From: a virus
Lineage: Duplodnaviria; Heunggongvirae; Uroviricota; Caudoviricetes
Virus record (IMG/VR): IMGVR_UViG_2609459831_000017
DNA: 22,417 nt
Reading direction: 5' to 3' (one strand)
Part shown: piece after piece, positions 3,307 to 22,417 of the stretch
Numbering within the stretch: the stretch's first letter is position 1
Layout: each line of letters starts with the position of its first letter
Translations under genes and position numbers: made by a program
Notes under the pieces: model-generated
Seen by the model: only the letters and a program-made list of their open reading frames with translations
Databases searched by the model: none
What the model was told of the DNA's origin: nothing

Positions 3307-3882
3307 CTACGGCAGTGCTGGCCATTCAATATCCTGTGCAGTTGACGTATCAACACGGTTCAGCAATACCCGATACTTTTTCCATGCTTCCAGCAACGAG
3401 ATTTCTTCCTCCGTTGCAATTTCCAGATCTGCAGCATCCTGAAGCGGCGCAATATGCTCACTGGCTACCTGCATCAGGTTGTTTTTTGTTTCTTCCGCCT
3501 CCCGGATCCGGAACAGTTTTTCTGCTTCCGTATCCTTCACCCAGGCTGTGCCGTTCCACTTCTGAAACTCCCCTTCCGGCGATAACCAGGTAACATTTTT
3601 CGGTAACGGACCGAGTTCAGAAATAAATAACGCGTCGCCGGAAGCCACGTCATAAACCGTTTTACCCCGATGATCTTCAACGAGATGCCACGATGACTCA
3701 TCACTGTTGAAAACAGCCACGAAGCCAGCCGGAATATCTGGCGGTGCAATATCGGTACTGTTTGCTGGCAGACCTGTATGAGGCGGAATATATGCATCAC
3801 CTTCACCAATAAATTCATTAGTTCCGGCCAGCAGATTATAAATTGTTATGGTCCGTGGTTGTTCACTCATTCTGAATGCCAT
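3307..3882 (-). CDS. tfaQ: tail fiber assembly protein
   Basis: 191 aa; matches recalled TfaQ/lambda Tfa. Its start overlaps the stf stop (TAATG). Confidence 0.85.
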
Positions 3883-7234: not shown

Positions 7235-7381
7235 TCACCCCACAAAAAAGCCCGCCTGAACCGGCGGGCTGTCATAACACTGTGTTACCTGGCTAATGGC
7301 CATTGCGGCGGCACCGGGCACCGCCGTTTTGCTGATACGGCTGAGGTTTTCAACGGCCTGCTCAAGACCTTTTATGGCCAT
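7235..7381 (-). pseudogene. remnant of lambda tail gene Z (first ~29 codons only)
   Basis: Minus-strand ATG at 7379-7381, 12 nt downstream of the FII stop, translates MAIKGLEQAVENLSRISKTAVPGAAAMAI, matching the recalled lambda gpZ N-terminus, then diverges into unrelated sequence and stops at 7235-7237. Confidence 0.6.
7243..7270 (-). terminator. predicted intrinsic terminator immediately upstream of the stf ribosome-binding site
   Basis: 8-bp GC-rich stem (7249-7256 pairing 7263-7270) with a 6-nt loop, followed on the minus strand by TTTTTTG. Confidence 0.45.
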
Positions 7382-7392
7382 ACATCCCCCTT

Positions 7393-7746
7393 TCAGCGGC
7401 GACGGTTAACGGCAGGCGGTACGCCCCGTCCAAGCCAGAGATGACAACTTCCGCCATCATCCGGCGAAACCCGATCTACCCAGAAATTTTCCTCACCGAT
7501 GGTCAGCGTGTCTCCACGCCGCAGCTGCCGCACCTCATCAGTCCGGACAAACAGGGACGGGCTGGAGCCTTCAACGCGCACGCCCTGTCCGGCATAGCTG
7601 ATATTTTCAGGGTCATCAAAAACACCACGTATCACAGCACCGGACTGCTCACCGGATGTCATGGTGGCTGACGTTCCCATGTACCCGCGTATCGTTTCAT
7701 CGGCGCGGGCAATGGCAGCATCGAACAGGTTATCGAAATCAGCCAC
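7393..7746 (-). CDS. FII: head-tail joining protein FII
   Basis: 117 aa (MADFDNLFDAAIARADETIRGYMG...VNRRR), near-identical to recalled lambda gpFII. Confidence 0.9.
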   Translation of the reverse strand: MADFDNLFDAAIARADETIRGYMGTSATMTSGEQSGAVIRGVFDDPENISYAGQGVRVEGSSPSLFVRTDEVRQLRRGDTLTIGEENFWVDRVSPDDGGSCHLWLGRGVPPAVNRRR

Positions 7747-7757
7747 AGCGCCTCCCG

Positions 7758-8156
7758 TTATTGCATTCTGGCCAGGCCGCGCGCTGTCATTTCAGCTGAC
7801 ACACCGGCAGAGACACGAAACGCCGTTCCCGGCAGCACAAATGCCACAGGTTCATCCCGCGTGGCGTGAAGTGCATCAGTATGCAGCGTCACCAGTGCCA
7901 CGACCGTGACCAGTTCAGACGTATCCAGAATCACGGTATCCGGCTGCGCTGATCCCACCTCATTTTCATGTCCGGTCAGCACATTTTCCCGGCTGAGAGG
8001 GGTGTCCTGACCGGCAGTTTCATCCGTGTCATCAAGCTCCTCTTCCAGCTCTGCCACACGGAGCGCCAGTTCTTCTTTCGTCCCCGTCAGGCTGACATCA
8101 CGGTTCAGTTGTTCACCCAGCGAGCGGAGACGGGCAATCAGTTCATCTTTCGTCAT
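7758..8156 (-). CDS. FI: DNA packaging protein FI
   Basis: 132 aa from ATG at 8154-8156 (MTKDELIARLRSLGEQLN...), matching recalled lambda gpFI; the track ORF extends 13 codons upstream to a GTG. Confidence 0.85.
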   Translation of the reverse strand: MTKDELIARLRSLGEQLNRDVSLTGTKEELALRVAELEEELDDTDETAGQDTPLSRENVLTGHENEVGSAQPDTVILDTSELVTVVALVTLHTDALHATRDEPVAFVLPGTAFRVSAGVSAEMTARGLARMQ

Positions 8157-8197
8157 GGACTCCTCCACAGAGAGAAAATGGCCCCGAAGGGCCATGA

Positions 8198-8674
8198 TTA
8201 CGCCAGTTGAACGGCCACGAACTCATCAGGATCAGCCAGCAGCATCAGCGGTGCTGACTGAATCATGGTGAACTCTCGCGCCGGATCGCCGGATGTCTTC
8301 CAGTTTTTCGGATAACGGGGAGACGCATTAATACCCTCACTCAATGCATCCGCATCCTGAATACAGCCATAGGTGCGCAGACCGCGTGCATGAGTGTTAC
8401 CCAGCACCATCGTGTTGTCCGGCAGGAAGTTCTTTTTGACGCCGTTTTCCACGTACTGTCCGGAATACACGACGATGGCCACATCGCCATACATCCCCTT
8501 ATAGGACACCGCTTTACCCAGGTCTTTCACCGCTGTCTCCAGCTCGGAATGAGAGCCACGACGGGTATCCAGCTTCTCCCTGACGGCTTTGAAGGAACGG
8601 AACAGCGCCCAGCCTTTCGGATCGAACACGATGATATTCACCACACCGCTGGCGTTCAGCGCGTAGGCTTCGAT
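8198..8674 (-). pseudogene. C-terminal fragment of major capsid protein E (about 158 codons), no native start
   Basis: Translation IEAYALNASGVVNIIVFDPKGWALFRSF...VAVQLA matches the C-terminal portion of recalled lambda gpE. The frame continues upstream past 8674 into unrelated codons, offset by one from the A' frame. Confidence 0.8.
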
Positions 8675-9906
8675 ACGCGCATTTCGTAGCGGTCCAGCTG
8701 GGAGTCGATACCGGCGGTCAGGTAAGCCACACGGTCAGGAACGGGCGCTGAATAATGCTCTTTCCGCTCTGCCATCACTTCAGCATCCGGACGTTCACCG
8801 ATTTTCGCTTCCCACGTCTCACCGAGCGTGGTGTTCACGAAGGTTTTACGTTTTCCCGTATCCCCTTTCGTCTTCATCCAGTCTTTGACAATCTGCACCC
8901 AGGTGGTGAACGGACTGTACGCCGTCCAGATGTGAAAGGTCACACTGTCAGGCGGTTCAATCTCTTCACCGGATGACGAAAACCAGAGAATGCCATCACG
9001 GGTCCAGATCCCGGTCTTTTCGCAGATATAACGGGCATCAGTAAAGTCCAGCTCCTGCTGACGGATGACGCAGGCGTTATGCTCACAGAGATAAAACACG
9101 CTGGAGGGGTCATCCGGCATCCATTTGAGGCCAAACGGCGTCTCTTTGTCGCCAAATTTAAGGTACTGCTCCTTCCCGCAGTGCGGGCAGGCAACATGAA
9201 AACGCATAAAATGCGGGGATTCACTGGCTGCACGCTCAATCTGGCAGGTGCCTCTCACTTTGGGCGTGGAGCCACGGATGGACTTTGGCCAGACCGAGCC
9301 TTCAATACGTTTGTCGCCAAGGAACGTCGGAGAGCCTTCCTGTTCAATATCCTCATCAAAGGCAGCAAGTTCATCATAACCCGCCACATCCACCGACTTT
9401 TCACGGTAGTTTTTTGCCGCTTTACCGCCCAGGCACCAGAAGCCACGACCATTGGTGAAACGCTTCATAGTGAGCGTGTTATCCCGGTGCTTTTTGCCAT
9501 ACCACGGAGCCAGCGCCAGCAGCGACGGAATATCGCGGATGGTCGGCTCAACGTGGGTTTTCATAAAGTTCTCGGCATCACCATCCGTCGGCAACCAGAT
9601 AAGTGTGTTGCGCTGCTTATGCTCTATAAAGTAGGCATAAACACCCAGCAGCATTTTGGAATAACCGACACGGGCAGACTTCACCACATTCACCTCACGG
9701 ATGTAGTCGCTGCCCATCGCATTCATGATGGCCCGCTGAAAGGGCAGTGTTTCCCAGCGCCCTTCCTGGTATGCGGATTCTTTCGGGAGATAGTAATTAG
9801 CATCCGCCCATTCAACGGCGGTCTGTGGCTCCGGCCTGAACAGTGAGCGAAGCCCGGCGCGGACAAAATGCCGCAGCCTGTTAACCTGACTGTTCGATAT
9901 ATTCAC
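8656..9906 (-). pseudogene. terminase large subunit A, truncated after ~409 codons
   Basis: MNISNSQVNRLRHFVRAGL...DRYEMRV matches the N-terminal two-thirds of recalled lambda gpA (641 aa), then 5 unrelated codons (SKPTR) and TGA at 8656-8658. The C-terminal region is absent. Confidence 0.85.
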
Positions 9907-12308: not shown

Positions 12309-12514
12309 TTCATTTTCACTTTTTTAAATCCAACGACAGACGGCTGGCATTTAAGTATTGTGAAATATTATCAAATGTAATCATCATTGATTTACAAAAG
12401 ATACATTTTGCCCCGAAAGGATTCATGTCAGAAACATCAAAAGATGATGTTCTATACTGGGAACCATGACAACACGGGCATCTAAAGTGAATATGGTTTG
12501 TAATATTGTCTACC

Positions 12515-12727
12515 TCAAAGCGCCACTACATGAACAGCGGCAGGACCTTTAGGTCCGTTCTCAATACCAAATTCAACTTCCTGATTCTCAGTTAATGTTT
12601 TGAAATCGTTGCTCTGAATTGCTGAGAAATGGACAAACACATCTTTGCTGCCATCTTTCGGCGTGATGAAACCAAAACCTTTTTCAGGGTTAAACCATTT
12701 CACTAAACCAGTCATTTTGTTAGACAT
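12515..12727 (-). CDS. cspI: cold-shock protein, CspA family
   Basis: 70 aa ([38 protein letters not shown]...) with RNP1/RNP2 motifs (KGFGFI, VFVHF). Confidence 0.9.
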
Positions 12728-13089
12728 AATTATTACCTTTTGAAGAAATTAGCCCTTGGGCAGAATGGTCCGAAAAAAAATATCAGAGAGAAAAACCAAC
12801 AAGGAAATCTCAAGAGGTACAAATAATAAAATTATAACAATGACTGCTTCAGATAAATTTGTAACAAACCAGAACACCATTAACGCATGATTAACCACCC
12901 ATAGCAAGGATTACTTTTGTAAAGAAAAACACAGCAATGAAAGAATAGCTTTATTTATTAATAAAACGTGTCATTCTGATTAAGACCTTTTATCTTACCC
13001 TTAAGATTTCAGGAATTTTGGCTCATGGAAGAGTCCTTTTTATTTAAATTTTACATTCCGCGATGTAAATGTTCCGATTTAATATTACC

Positions 13090-15117: not shown

Positions 15118-15398
15118 GAGATTGTGGTGCTTTTTGTGGGAGTCATCCACTTACGCACTTTGTTTTGCCATGCCAGCAGTTAGCTTCTGCTGTAAAACTA
15201 TTCATGCAGCAAACCTGCACTTCACCACAATGGTTAGCATACTTTTCCTGATTAAGATTTTGCCAAATATGCTAGCCATTGTTTCATGTATTGGACCTCC
15301 TTACTTTTTATTAAAGAGATCCAATATTCACTACTCTGTCCGTATCTCTACTCAGGCATCAGCCTTCTTCGTTATCGTATACAGACGAGCGATGAATT

Positions 15399-15614
15399 TT
15401 AATCAGTAATGATGACATTTGCTGCTGCAGGACCTTTAGCACCACTCTCTATAGAGAAGGTAACCTTTTGACCTTCAAATAAGGTTCGATAATTATCATT
15501 CTGAATCGCAGAAAAATGCACAAACACATCTTTACTACCATCAACAGGAGAAATAAAGCCGAAACCTTTATCAGCGTTAAACCATTTTACTAAACCAGTC
15601 ATTTTATTTGACAT
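15399..15614 (-). CDS. cspB: cold-shock protein, CspA family
   Basis: 71 aa ([53 protein letters not shown]...). Confidence 0.9.
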
Positions 15615-15914
15615 TCTACATTCCTTAACTTGAGCCTTTCGGCATAAATGGTTTGCATAACAGAAACGACTTCGTACTTAATTGGAGAGACTCAAAGAAG
15701 GAATAAGTGAATAACACCTGAAATGAGAACTGCTTTAGTAAACTACTTCGTATATCGTCTGTTCTTCAAACCGACGCAATCATTAACGCATAGTTGAACA
15801 TATGAAGCAATGTTTATTTTAGACATCCAGCCATCTTCAACCCCATCAAAAAACTATAGCTTTCTTCAGGAACGTGTGTATAGTGCGCCAAGTTATCAGT
15901 ATTAAGGAATTTTT

Positions 15915-19178: not shown

Positions 19179-19334
19179 TTACTCCTCAGGTTCGTAAGCT
19201 GTGAAGACAGCGACCTCCGTCTGGCCGGTTCGGATTCGTACCTCGCAGAGGTCTTTCCTCGTTACCAGTGCCGTCACTATGACGGTTAAACAGATGACGA
19301 TCAGGGCGATTAACATCGCCTTTTGCTGCTTCAT
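19179..19334 (-). CDS. hokD: Hok-family membrane toxin
   Basis: 51 aa (MKQQKAMLIALIVICLTVIVTALVTRKDLCEVRIRTGQTEVAVFTAYEPEE), matching recalled HokD/RelF. Below the track cutoff; translated by hand. Confidence 0.85.
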   Translation of the reverse strand: MKQQKAMLIALIVICLTVIVTALVTRKDLCEVRIRTGQTEVAVFTAYEPEE

Positions 19335-19405
19335 AGCCTGCTTCTCCTGTCAACGCAAAGCAGAAGTGTCACCTTCGGTGCGAAACAGAGATGTCATGCT
19401 TTGGT

Positions 19406-19693
19406 TCAGAGAATGCGTTTGACCGCCTCGCTATATACTTCCGAGCGTTCTCTTTTCCCAACAGAAATCACGAAAACGACAACTTTCTCGTCTATAACCT
19501 GGTATACAAGGCGATAGCCTGAAGACCGGAGCTTAATCTTGTAACAATCAGGCATACCACGGAGCTTGTTTGCTTCAATCCGGGGTGACTCAAGTACTTC
19601 AACCAGCTTCTTTTTCAACTGTTCACGTACCGTCGAGCCCAGCTTTCGCCATTCCTTTAGTGCCCGCTCGTCAAAATCCAGAAAATACGCCAT
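19406..19693 (-). CDS. relE: RelE mRNA interferase toxin
   Basis: 95 aa (MAYFLDFDERALKEWRKLGSTVREQLKKKLVEVLESPRIEANKLRGMPDCYKIKLRSSGYRLVYQVIDEKVVVFVISVGKRERSEVY...), matching recalled K-12 RelE. Confidence 0.95.
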   Translation of the reverse strand: MAYFLDFDERALKEWRKLGSTVREQLKKKLVEVLESPRIEANKLRGMPDCYKIKLRSSGYRLVYQVIDEKVVVFVISVGKRERSEVYSEAVKRIL

Positions 19694-19932
19694 CAGAGTT
19701 CATCCAGCGTCACACGTACTGGCTTAGGATTACGAAGCCGTTCTTTCACTATCTCCACAAGTTCAGCATCTTCATCACTCAGGAGTGTCTGTTTGAACGG
19801 CAAGCGTTCATTGTCAGCGATATACTCGAGCATGAGACGAAGCGCTTCAGAAGGAGTTACACCCATTTTTTCAAGCGCGGCGTAAGAACGCGCTTTAAGT
19901 TCATCGTCAATACGCAGGTTAATGCTACCCAT
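19693..19932 (-). CDS. relB: RelB antitoxin
   Basis: 79 aa (MGSINLRIDDELKARSYAALEKMGVTPSEALRLMLEYIADNERLPF...), matching recalled K-12 RelB; overlaps the relE start by 1 nt. Confidence 0.95.
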   Translation of the reverse strand: MGSINLRIDDELKARSYAALEKMGVTPSEALRLMLEYIADNERLPFKQTLLSDEDAELVEIVKERLRNPKPVRVTLDEL

Positions 19933-19940
19933 GTCTTACA

Positions 19941-19969
19941 CCTCTTGTAATTACAAATGTCATTACAAG
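19941..19969 (-). promoter_or_regulatory. relO operator, overlapping the relBE promoter
   Basis: Minus strand reads CTTGTAATGACATTTGTAATTACAAGAGG, hexad inverted repeats TTGTAAT/ATTACAA as recalled for relO. Candidate -35/-10 (TTGCCC, 17 nt, GATACT) just upstream. Confidence 0.7.
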
Positions 19970-20262
19970 TATCGCACTACAACATGCTTAGGGCAAGTCA
20001 CGAAGGAAGTCAGAAAGTAGTCGTAAGAACGGTGATCACTGTCCGCTTTGTGCCAGGAGCAGCCATTGCTAAGTCCATCCTGTATTGTGCAGGTCAGCTC
20101 GTTTTTAAAGAGTCCGGCCATCATCTTACTGGTACAGACACCATATACTTTGTGACGGTCAGGCTACATATGCACAACTCAACTTATTCATCTATTTTTT
20201 GCTTTAGCATGTCAGTGTTGCTTTCTCGTCGGCGGGTGAGCGGTGACCTGACCTGTCGATAA
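19957..20262 (+). CDS. ydfV: YdfV-like ORF, possibly not a real gene
   Basis: 101-aa ORF matching the recalled K-12 ydfV annotation, but its ATG lies inside relO and no Shine-Dalgarno is evident. Product is Cys/His-containing and low-complexity. Confidence 0.35.
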   Translation: MSLQVSHYNMLRASHEGSQKVVVRTVITVRFVPGAAIAKSILYCAGQLVFKESGHHLTGTDTIYFVTVRLHMHNSTYSSIFCFSMSVLLSRRRVSGDLTCR

Positions 20263-20414
20263 AGGAACGTAACACGTTTTATGCAACACCCGCATGCGGC
20301 AGAAAATTATTGCCGAACGTTTACCCCTGTCAACAAGCTTTACTTTCTGAGGCGCGCCAGCCCGCGAGGAAAACAATCTGAACATCAAACAATTAATGAC
20401 ACAAGAAATACGAT

Positions 20415-20441
20415 TAAAGATTTTTTTGTGCATGCCGATAG
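20415..20441 (+). promoter_or_regulatory. sigma-28 (FliA) class 3 flagellar promoter for flxA
   Basis: TAAAGATT (20415-20422), 11-nt spacer, GCCGATAG (20434-20441), against consensus TAAAGTTT-N11-GCCGATAA; 23 nt upstream of the flxA ATG. Confidence 0.65.
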
Positions 20442-20464
20442 TGCTTTTTTAAAAGGAGAAATCT

Positions 20465-20797
20465 ATGTCTGTCACAATTCAGGGAAATACCTCAACCGTT
20501 ATTTCAAACAACTCCGCCCCGGAAGGAACATCAGAAATAGCCAAAATCACAAGACAAATTCAGGTGCTGACTGAAAAGCTTGGGAAAATCTCATCGGAAG
20601 AGGGGATGACGACACAGCAGAAAAAAGAAATGGCTGCATTGGTACAGAAGCAAATTGAAAGCCTCTGGGCTCAACTGGAGCAGTTGTTAAGGCAGCAGGC
20701 AGAGAAAAAGAATGAAGACGCGACAGTTCAGCCTGATAAAAAAGAAGAGAAAAAAGACGATACAAATACCGCTGGCACCATTGATATTTACGTCTAA
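20465..20797 (+). CDS. flxA: FlxA, FliA-regulated protein of unknown function
   Basis: 110 aa (MSVTIQGNTSTVISNNSAPEGTSEIAKITRQIQVLTEKLGKISSEEGMTTQQKKEMAALVQKQIESLWAQLEQL...) with AAGGAG Shine-Dalgarno. Confidence 0.85.
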   Translation: MSVTIQGNTSTVISNNSAPEGTSEIAKITRQIQVLTEKLGKISSEEGMTTQQKKEMAALVQKQIESLWAQLEQLLRQQAEKKNEDATVQPDKKEEKKDDTNTAGTIDIYV

Positions 20798-20811
20798 GTG
20801 ACAGCCGTATT

Positions 20812-20838
20812 GTGGCCCTCATCGGGCCACTTTTCGCC
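20812..20838 (+). terminator. predicted intrinsic terminator downstream of flxA
   Basis: GTGGCCC-TCATC-GGGCCAC hairpin followed by TTTTCGCC. Confidence 0.5.
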
Positions 20839-21254
20839 ATCAGCCTTTTCTTTAAAGACATATTATCTTTGTATCATTTCTGATAGTTAACATTACAAGA
20901 TATAAGTAATGGACGCACTCCCAATTAGTCTATTTAAATCGCCACGAGTTTAACTGACAACCCATGATCAATTATGAATTGCAACTATTTCTGTAGTCAC
21001 TTTTGTGGGGACAGTCCACAAAACTGCCAACTTCCGCTTCTTGCTCTTAGCGGACATTAGCATAGGCTATTTACCATAACGCCTCATTACGCGCACCGCC
21101 CAGACTGACTCAGCGCGTTTCTGGCATATCCCCGGTAAAACAAGTAACAAACCACCCGAAAATGAACACCAGAAACGCGACTTAAGAATTGATCTTACCC
21201 AGCAATAGTGGACACGCGGCTAAGTGAGTAAACTCTCAGTCAGAGGTGACTCAC

Positions 21255-21554
21255 ATGACAAAAACAGTATCAACCAGTAAAAAACCCCGTAAACAGCATT
21301 CGCCTGAATTTCGCAGTGAAGCCCTGAAGCTTGCTGAACGCATCGGTGTTACTGCCGCAGCCCGTGAACTCAGCCTGTATGAATCACTGCTCTACAACTG
21401 GCGCAGTAAACAGCAAAATCAGCAGACGTCTTCTGAACGTGAACTGGAGATGTCTACCGAGATTGCACGTCTCAAACGCCAGCTGGCAGAACGGGATGAA
21501 GAGCTGGCTATCCTCCAAAAGGCCGCGACATACTTCGCGAAGCGCCTGAAATGA
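21255..21554 (+). CDS. insE: IS3 OrfA (transposase N-terminal, helix-turn-helix)
   Basis: 99 aa ([43 protein letters not shown]...) from ATG 21255; the track ORF uses an upstream GTG at 21246. Confidence 0.9.
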
Positions 21555-22417
21555 AGTATGTCTTTATTGAAAAACATCAGGCTGAGTTCAGCATCAAAGC
21601 AATGTGCCGCGTGCTCCGGGTGGCCCGCAGCGGCTGGTATACGTGGTGTCAGCGGCGGACAAGGATAAGCACGCGTCAGCAGTTCCGCCAACACTGCGAC
21701 AGCGTTGTCCTCGCGGCTTTTACCCGGTCAAAACAGCGTTACGGTGCCCCACGCCTGACGGATGAACTGCGTGCTCAGGGTTACCCCTTTAACGTAAAAA
21801 CCGTGGCGGCAAGCCTGCGCCGTCAGGGACTGAGGGCAAAGGCCTCCCGGAAGTTCAGCCCGGTCAGCTACCGCGCACACGGCCTGCCTGTGTCAGAAAA
21901 TCTGTTGGAGCAGGATTTTTACGCCAGTGGCCCGAACCAGAAGTGGGCAGGAGACATCACGTACTTACGTACAGATGAAGGCTGGCTGTATCTGGCAGTG
22001 GTCATTGACCTGTGGTCACGTGCCGTTATTGGCTGGTCAATGTCGCCACGCATGACGGCGCAACTGGCCTGCGATGCCCTGCAGATGGCGCTGTGGCGGC
22101 GTAAGAGGCCCCGGAACGTTATCGTTCACACGGACCGTGGAGGCCAGTACTGTTCAGCAGATTATCAGGCGCAACTGAAGCGGCATAATCTGCGTGGAAG
22201 TATGAGCGCAAAAGGTTGCTGCTACGATAATGCCTGCGTGGAAAGCTTCTTTCATTCGCTGAAAGTGGAATGTATCCATGGAGAACACTTTATCAGCCGG
22301 GAAATAATGCGGGCAACGGTATTTAATTATATCGAATGTGATTACAATCGGTGGCGGCGGCACAGTTGGTGTGGCGGCCTCAGTCCGGAACAATTTGAAA
22401 ACCAGAACCTCGCTTAG
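21551..22417 (+). CDS. insF: IS3 OrfB (DDE transposase catalytic domain), made as an OrfAB fusion by -1 frameshift
   Basis: 288 aa with DDE/RNase-H-fold motifs ([28 protein letters not shown]). Frame is -1 relative to orfA; the overlap includes A-AAA-G at 21517-21521. Confidence 0.9.

Follow-up and report, generated by a model that had tools for sequence, protein, structure and literature searches.

The flxA locus of Escherichia coli 1303, a bovine mastitis isolate, raises the question of why a decayed prophage should hold a gene under a flagellar promoter, and whether this promoter arose within the phage or arrived together with the gene. The window, i.e. the whole stretch of 22,417 nucleotides analysed here, matched the chromosome of strain 1303 at 100% (NZ_CP009166.1, 1787319-1809735) and covered most of a Qin-type lambdoid prophage. 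It contains a tail fibre gene, capsid and terminase genes that are truncated, genes for lysis, csp genes, ydfT (the Q antiterminator gene), rem, hokD, relBE, ydfV and flxA; an IS3 element comes next. Within it, the segment 20415-20838 is almost certainly a self-contained monocistronic class 3 flagellar unit that is carried as moron cargo of the prophage; this degree of confidence applies to the mechanism of promoter and transcription unit and does not extend to the role of the FlxA protein. The comparison with relatives adds a family-wide sigma-28 promoter and chromosomal homologues, which would recast flxA as captured host cargo.

The class 3 promoter and its transcription unit

The -35 element TAAAGATT is located at 20415-20422 and the -10 element GCCGATAG at 20434-20441, both on the plus strand and each agreeing with its consensus octamer, TAAAGTTT and GCCGATAA respectively, at seven of eight positions. 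The 11-nt spacer TTTTTGTGCAT (20423-20433, +) lies between them; in relatives of the gene it drifts in sequence and keeps a length of 11-12 nt. The full string TAAAGATTTTTTTGTGCATGCCGATAG (20415-20441, +) occurred once in the window and in none of 100 shuffles. Compared to the class 3 consensus TAAAGTTT-N11-GCCGATAA it has two mismatches, so that 14 of 16 positions agree. When both strands were scanned, the flxA promoter was the sole site in the window with at most two mismatches, against 0.02 sites expected by chance per window and 2 of 100 shuffled windows holding one. With up to three mismatches allowed it was still the only site, with 0.22 expected. The near-consensus sigma-28 promoter that the initial annotation had placed before flxA was thereby confirmed. 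Both elements, the 11-nt spacing, an agreement above chance and a position before a gene, the hallmarks of a class 3 promoter, were all found at this site.

The canonical class 3 promoters of tar, flgMN (P3), fliC, motAB and fliD have the two octamers and the 11-nt spacer in common with flxA. With 14 of 16 positions, flxA equals fliC, motAB and fliD in the quality of its match, and it shares the class 3 -35 element of flgMN (Table 2 in Fitzgerald et al. 2014, PMC4183435). The flxA promoter differs from the canonical set in the last base of the -10 element, which is G instead of A, and in serving a mobile-element gene without a known flagellar role.

The region 20200-20900 was 100% identical to flxA (b1566) and its upstream DNA in E. 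coli K-12 MG1655, and therefore the published flxA experiments, all of which were conducted in K-12, apply directly. Promoter, leader, coding sequence and terminator as well as the neighbouring ydfV-relBE-hokD genes are present in K-12 as in the window; the host strain is a different one, but the cassette itself is unaltered. The original report of flxA describes the gene in its title as FliA-dependent and dispensable for motility (Ide and Kutsukake 1997, Gene 199:19). In microarrays, flxA expression changed by -28.4-fold in a fliA deletion and by +8.2-fold five minutes after induction of sigma-F (Zhao et al. 2007, PMC1935009). The FliA ChIP-seq motif for flxA was exactly TAAAGATTTTTTTGTGCATGCCGATAGT, and normalised flxA RNA amounted to 280 in the wild type versus 2 in the fliA deletion (Fitzgerald et al. 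2014, PMC4183435). In genomic SELEX, reconstituted sigma-28 holoenzyme alone bound the ydfV-flxA spacer in vitro (Shimada et al. 2017, PMC5493296). Furthermore, flxA was 35-fold up-regulated in strains carrying insertions upstream of flhDC that activate motility (PMC11237407) and was co-regulated with flagellar genes in knockouts of LysR regulators (PMC9068703). A FliA-dependent flxA promoter has thus been known since 1997, with genome-wide confirmation in 2007, 2014 and 2017. A lack of FliA dependence, which the initial annotation had named as the outcome that would speak against it, is contradicted by both fliA deletion data sets from K-12.

These data also bear on the alternative of a coincidental motif, with flxA transcribed by read-through from ydfV or from a sigma-70 promoter. 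A match with three mismatches is indeed easily obtained, as 20 of 100 shuffled windows contained one somewhere. At the two mismatches observed, the expectation is the 0.02 sites given above, and the placement before the ATG is kept in 46 of 47 diverged loci. A promoter scan of the plus strand upstream of flxA detected no sigma-70-like site. The FliA ChIP-seq peak on the motif, the 140-fold loss of RNA in the fliA deletion (PMC4183435) and the binding of sigma-28 holoenzyme in vitro (PMC5493296) refute the chance match, which retains practically no probability.

The sigma-28 promoter is followed by a short leader (20442-20464, +) that includes the Shine-Dalgarno sequence AAGGAG at 20453-20458, and 23 nt separate the end of the -10 element from the ATG at 20465. 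The coding sequence (20465-20797, +) specifies 110 amino acids. Downstream, folding revealed an intrinsic-terminator-like hairpin, GUGGCCC-UCAUC-GGGCCAC followed by UUUU (20812-20834, +), with a 7-bp stem containing six G-C pairs, a 5-nt loop and a folding energy of -17.3 kcal/mol (z = -3.1 versus shuffles). A simple terminator scan did not include the hairpin among its listed sites because its T tract consists of only four T, and the short U tract makes the efficiency of termination uncertain. A similar hairpin is present 3' of a 65%-identical homologue (locus L007); the hairpin was accepted as a terminator on the folding result together with this recurrence after a diverged homologue.

Judged from the usual geometry of sigma-28 promoters, transcription probably starts at about 20448-20450. 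FliA-RNA polymerase reads TAAAGATT as -35 and GCCGATAG as -10 element, 11 nt apart, and would begin transcription approximately 15 nt before the flxA ATG. The resulting mRNA of about 390 nt would carry a strong Shine-Dalgarno sequence and end at the hairpin. FlgM keeps FliA inactive until the hook-basal body is complete, upon which flxA is switched on with the flagellin, motor and chemotaxis genes, as shown in K-12 with identical DNA, and the unit requires no regulator of the phage.

FlxA-like genes in other Enterobacterales

Besides flxA, the FliA regulon of E. coli includes further non-structural genes, namely modA, ynjH, ves, yjcZ, ycgR and pdeH/yhjH (PMC4183435, PMC1935009). Like flxA, these genes are FliA-dependent and not needed for building a flagellum. 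They are core chromosomal genes in E. coli, whereas flxA is prophage-borne there and was present at ≥99% identity in 1204 of 5426 complete E. coli genomes.

Homologues of flxA were gathered by a sequence search of protein representatives, a profile search, contig look-ups, a genome scan, which returned at least four loci, and a metagenome scan. The comparison set comprised 47 loci (nine non-redundant homologue loci and 38 metagenomic loci) with 40 distinct upstream sequences; these loci are not phylogenetically independent of each other. Named members originate from Pantoea, Erwinia, Enterobacter roggenkampii and the E. cloacae complex, and Pseudocitrobacter; in Erwinia amylovora the annotated flxA is EAM_2383. 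The Pantoea-type loci share a conserved chromosomal neighbourhood, in which gltX is followed by the FlxA-like gene, a convergent LysR regulator, a yfeH-like transporter and ligA, and this neighbourhood is free of phage genes. Next to a 62%-identical relative from an Enterobacteriaceae metagenome-assembled genome lie an MFS transporter and, convergently oriented, a LysR regulator. A copy from Enterobacter, with 85% identity, resides in an integrase-bearing element next to icd.

A sigma-28-type motif of the form T(A/C/G)AAG...-N11/12-(G/A/T)(C/T)CGATA(A/C/T/G) was found in all loci, ending 23-32 nt before the start codon, and the spacer measured 11 or 12 nt in 47 of 47. The hexamer CCGATA ended 24-36 nt before the ATG in 46 of the 47 diverged loci, where the background, estimated from masked controls, predicts 0.0025 per locus; the single exception carries TAAAGTTA-N11-GTCGATAA. 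Across the 116 kb of the nine non-redundant loci, sites with at least 13 of 16 matches numbered twelve, nine of which were those before the FlxA-like gene. In an alignment of ten upstream sequences the invariant positions were CCGATA, one A of the -35 element and the ATG, and the spacer drifted.

This conservation is most simply read as a long-standing membership of FlxA-like genes in the sigma-28 regulon of Enterobacterales. Since chromosomal relatives possess the same promoter, the phage most likely picked up a host gene together with it: a lambdoid phage would have captured a member of the host sigma-28 regulon with promoter and terminator, rather than the unit having evolved in the prophage. 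The direction of transfer, from chromosome to phage, is suggested by distribution and genomic context and not by a rooted tree. The initial annotation had regarded flxA as a prophage gene wired into the host flagellar regulon. The regulatory connection is supported by the published FliA dependence; a rewiring of a phage gene is not, as the promoter is family-wide and hence most likely inherited. An alternative-sigma promoter shared across Erwiniaceae and Enterobacteriaceae would mark FlxA as an ancient member of the flagellar programme and not as an accident of the prophage, and flxA would then be an example of a phage moving a host regulon member along with its regulatory wiring.

Candidate roles of the FlxA protein

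FlxA of strain 1303 is WP_001301033.1, the same accession as FlxA of K-12. It matched the Pfam family PF14282 (FlxA-like) with 53.8 bits against a cut-off of 26.3, residues 7-101 aligning to positions 2-96 of the 101-position profile. In PHROGs it affiliated with phrog_11044 and phrog_33555, two unannotated families, and a search of NCBIfam yielded no real match. The protein had been described as rich in Gln and Lys and probably coiled-coil. Gln and Lys indeed account for 12 of the 110 residues each, but Glu and Thr are equally enriched with 12 residues each, and the protein is slightly acidic (17 D+E versus 14 K+R). An AlphaFold2 model based on a 17-sequence alignment had a mean pLDDT of 65; it contained helices at residues 24-42 and 50-86, arranged as a helical hairpin with pLDDT values mostly of 76-89, and residues 1-19 and 86-110 remained below 50. 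The helical character proposed before is retained in this model, which speaks for a hairpin of two helices between disordered ends rather than for a coiled coil. No hydrophobic segment, Sec signal or membrane span was detected, the maximum hydropathy over 19 residues being 0.34. FlxA is thus predicted to be a small soluble two-helix hairpin with disordered termini.

The typical family member opens with a short conserved M-x-x-I, continues through a linker rich in Ser, Thr and Gly into two amphipathic helices that surround an invariant Lys, and closes, after a charged tail of variable sequence, with a conserved hydrophobic C-terminus, IDIYV/I (IDIYV in FlxA itself). A Foldseek search of the model against the PDB gave nothing at E ≤ 0.001 and returned generic helical hairpins only, and a profile search of PDB sequences returned designed coiled coils only. 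Two very large proteins, P0131 (3361 aa) and P0147 (2729 aa), matched FlxA residues 8-50 in 17 and 7 stretches, respectively, in phmmer searches; they are surface proteins with Ig/cadherin repeats and were rejected as relatives, the match being most likely compositional or due to linkers. The gene was still listed as uncharacterised in 2024 (PMC11551758), and fold and sequence searches revealed no characterised relative, in agreement with the function having been called unknown in the initial annotation.

One plausible role, which we hold with some reserve, is that of a cytoplasmic helical-hairpin or coiled-coil accessory which binds a component of the flagellar, chemotaxis or c-di-GMP machinery and is non-essential in laboratory motility. 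The predicted amphipathic hairpin would suit such a function, as would the dispensability for motility stated in the title of Ide and Kutsukake (1997) and the existence of other non-structural members in the FliA regulon (PMC4183435, PMC1935009). The family is conserved in motile Enterobacterales, and the C-terminal IDIYV-type motif suggests a binding partner. The searches of Pfam, NCBIfam and the PDB disclosed no homology to a characterised protein. By itself, a cytoplasmic role also leaves two published observations unexplained, the detection of FlxA in culture supernatant and a discordance of protein and mRNA at 42 °C.

Both of these observations could be accommodated if FlxA were exported, as a dispensable late-class substrate, by the flagellar type III secretion apparatus, an explanation that we consider possible but doubtful. 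FlxA would be made after completion of the hook-basal body, be threaded out via its disordered N-terminus and either act outside the cell or be discarded. Export in this manner is compatible with the explanation given for the promoter. It is favoured by the strictly class 3 expression (PMC4183435, PMC1935009), by the small size and the predicted disorder of the N-terminal 19 residues in a protein without Sec signal or hydrophobic segment, and by an N-terminus that is polar and rich in Ser, Thr and Gly throughout the family. In the supernatant proteome of E. coli grown together with Histomonas, FlxA (five confident peptides) was increased alongside the exported proteins FlgK, FliD, FliC, FlgL, FlgM and FlgE (PMC6391000). 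The same exoproteome table includes the cytoplasmic proteins CheY, isocitrate lyase and glucan phosphorylase, and therefore lysis could explain the presence of FlxA. At 42 °C, when flagellar export is impaired, flxA was singled out for opposite regulation of protein and mRNA, yet the main text of that study does not give the direction of the discordance; it shows a destabilised export apparatus and a fall in FlgM secretion with an unchanged cellular level of FlgM, which is thus retained (PMC6551532). The authors of the two papers leave the FlxA observations uninterpreted (PMC6391000, PMC6551532).

Several properties of late export substrates were thus found in FlxA, namely class 3 expression, pLDDT below 50 at residues 1-19 and the low hydropathy maximum; they are necessary and far from sufficient. 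Homology to an axial protein or a dedicated chaperone was not detected in comparisons with FliD, FliC, FliS and FliT of K-12, in Pfam, NCBIfam and the PDB, or among the neighbouring genes, none of which is evidently chaperone-like. BLASTP of 18 family members against these four K-12 proteins produced short noisy matches without meaningful similarity, in a search with composition correction switched off and a database of four sequences, and the structural comparison gave no match either. A resemblance of the FlxA N-terminus to that of FliD (MASISS...) was considered and rejected as too short to count.

Export of non-flagellar proteins via the flagellum is exemplified by the FlaC and Fed proteins of Campylobacter and by YplA of Yersinia. 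These proteins have in common with FlxA the sigma-28 or flagellar co-expression, the lack of a Sec signal and the extracellular detection; the likeness is a functional analogy only. Broader, and in our estimation rather unlikely, is the view that the small proteins of the FlxA family, controlled by sigma-28 at practically all enterobacterial loci of the comparison, constitute a hitherto unrecognised late type III, non-structural flagellar "effector", which a lambdoid phage has captured and distributed among roughly one in five E. coli genomes. If FlxA were exported, a non-structural, phage-borne secreted substrate would be added to the best-studied flagellar system. A cytoplasmic accessory role, tentative as it is, appears at least as likely as export.

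Phage-borne copies and the prophage setting

In the prophage, flxA is situated between the replication and immunity genes and the Q antiterminator gene, and it is oriented against the early-right operon (cro-O-...-Q). Its location between phage operons, together with its own promoter and hairpin, is that of a prophage moron; the GC content of 43% differs only mildly from the 47% of the window. Lambdoid morons such as bor and lom of phage lambda are extra genes with their own promoter and terminator. Like flxA, they lie between phage operons, and their expression in the prophage state does not depend on phage regulators. Morons of the bor/lom type are constitutive, whereas flxA has a promoter for an alternative sigma factor of the host and its expression follows flagellar assembly.

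Phage PhiR42_1 (from ECOR13), whose complete genome has been deposited, contains an identical flxA cassette, again between replication genes and Q and opposite to the direction of the operon. The cassette was also present in 42 IMG/VR contigs; both promoter hexamers were exact in 40 of these, and variation was found mostly in the spacer. Such conservation in viral contigs, and the occurrence in a complete phage genome, might indicate that the cassette serves the prophage: FlxA could shield flagellated lysogens, for example from flagellotropic phages, or head-on transcription from the sigma-28 promoter into the early-right operon could damp read-through toward Q in motile cells. The orientation of flxA against the cro-to-Q operon and its vicinity to other cargo of benefit to lysogens (relBE, hokD and the csp genes) would fit with a service to the phage. 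A PADLOC search, on the other hand, matched no defence-system model; in other genera, family members with this promoter are chromosomal, which argues against a phage-specific ancestral role, and a short, terminated unit such as flxA has limited scope for interference. A benefit to the phage is very improbable.

In one IMG/VR contig (L045, about 2951-2977) the -10 element is mutated to GTCGATAG, a change of C to T in the CCGATA core, which makes it the sole -10 mutant among the 42. In E. coli ECGI0523 (locus L011, 2934-3020) the sigma-28 promoter is exact, but GAGAATCTTATATCTGTC takes the place of GAGAAATCTATGTCTGTC in the start region. This copy has lost the ATG and aligns with FlxA from residue 7 onward. 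In this strain flxA may be decaying behind an intact promoter.

The surroundings of flxA in strain 1303 offered some further observations. Its upstream neighbour on the same strand is the putative gene ydfV (19957-20262, +; 101 amino acids), which had no match in Pfam, NCBIfam, PHROGs or PADLOC. The spacer between ydfV and flxA contains a sigma-70-type site, TTGACA-16-AATAAT (20306-20333, -; 11 of 12 positions), that points in the direction of relB, antisense to ydfV and opposite to flxA. Its -10 part is absent in the 85%-identical Enterobacter locus, and the number of sigma-70-type sites around it was no higher than expected by chance. The toxin-antitoxin cluster relB-relE-hokD (19179-19932, -) is located immediately upstream of ydfV and flxA on the opposite strand, and this block accompanies flxA in phage PhiR42_1 too.

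Farther away, the structural module of the prophage is decayed (about 7286-9906, -): in strain 1303, RefSeq annotates the genes for the major capsid protein, the large terminase subunit and a tail protein as truncated pseudogenes. Other strains possess this prophage in a full form of 38 kb. Rfam models identified cspA-type thermoregulator leaders at 12488-12873 and 15383-15775 (both -), in front of cspI and cspB, as well as an IS009 RNA match in the tfaQ region (3341-3539, -). The identity with K-12 runs to position 21189, and IS3 begins at 21190, 355 bp past the flxA terminator. The element (21190-22417) consists of insE/insF with a programmed frameshift. K-12 is devoid of IS3 at this site and continues to ydfW; in strain 1303, ydfW comes after IS3 and is followed by an ISNCY transposase fragment.
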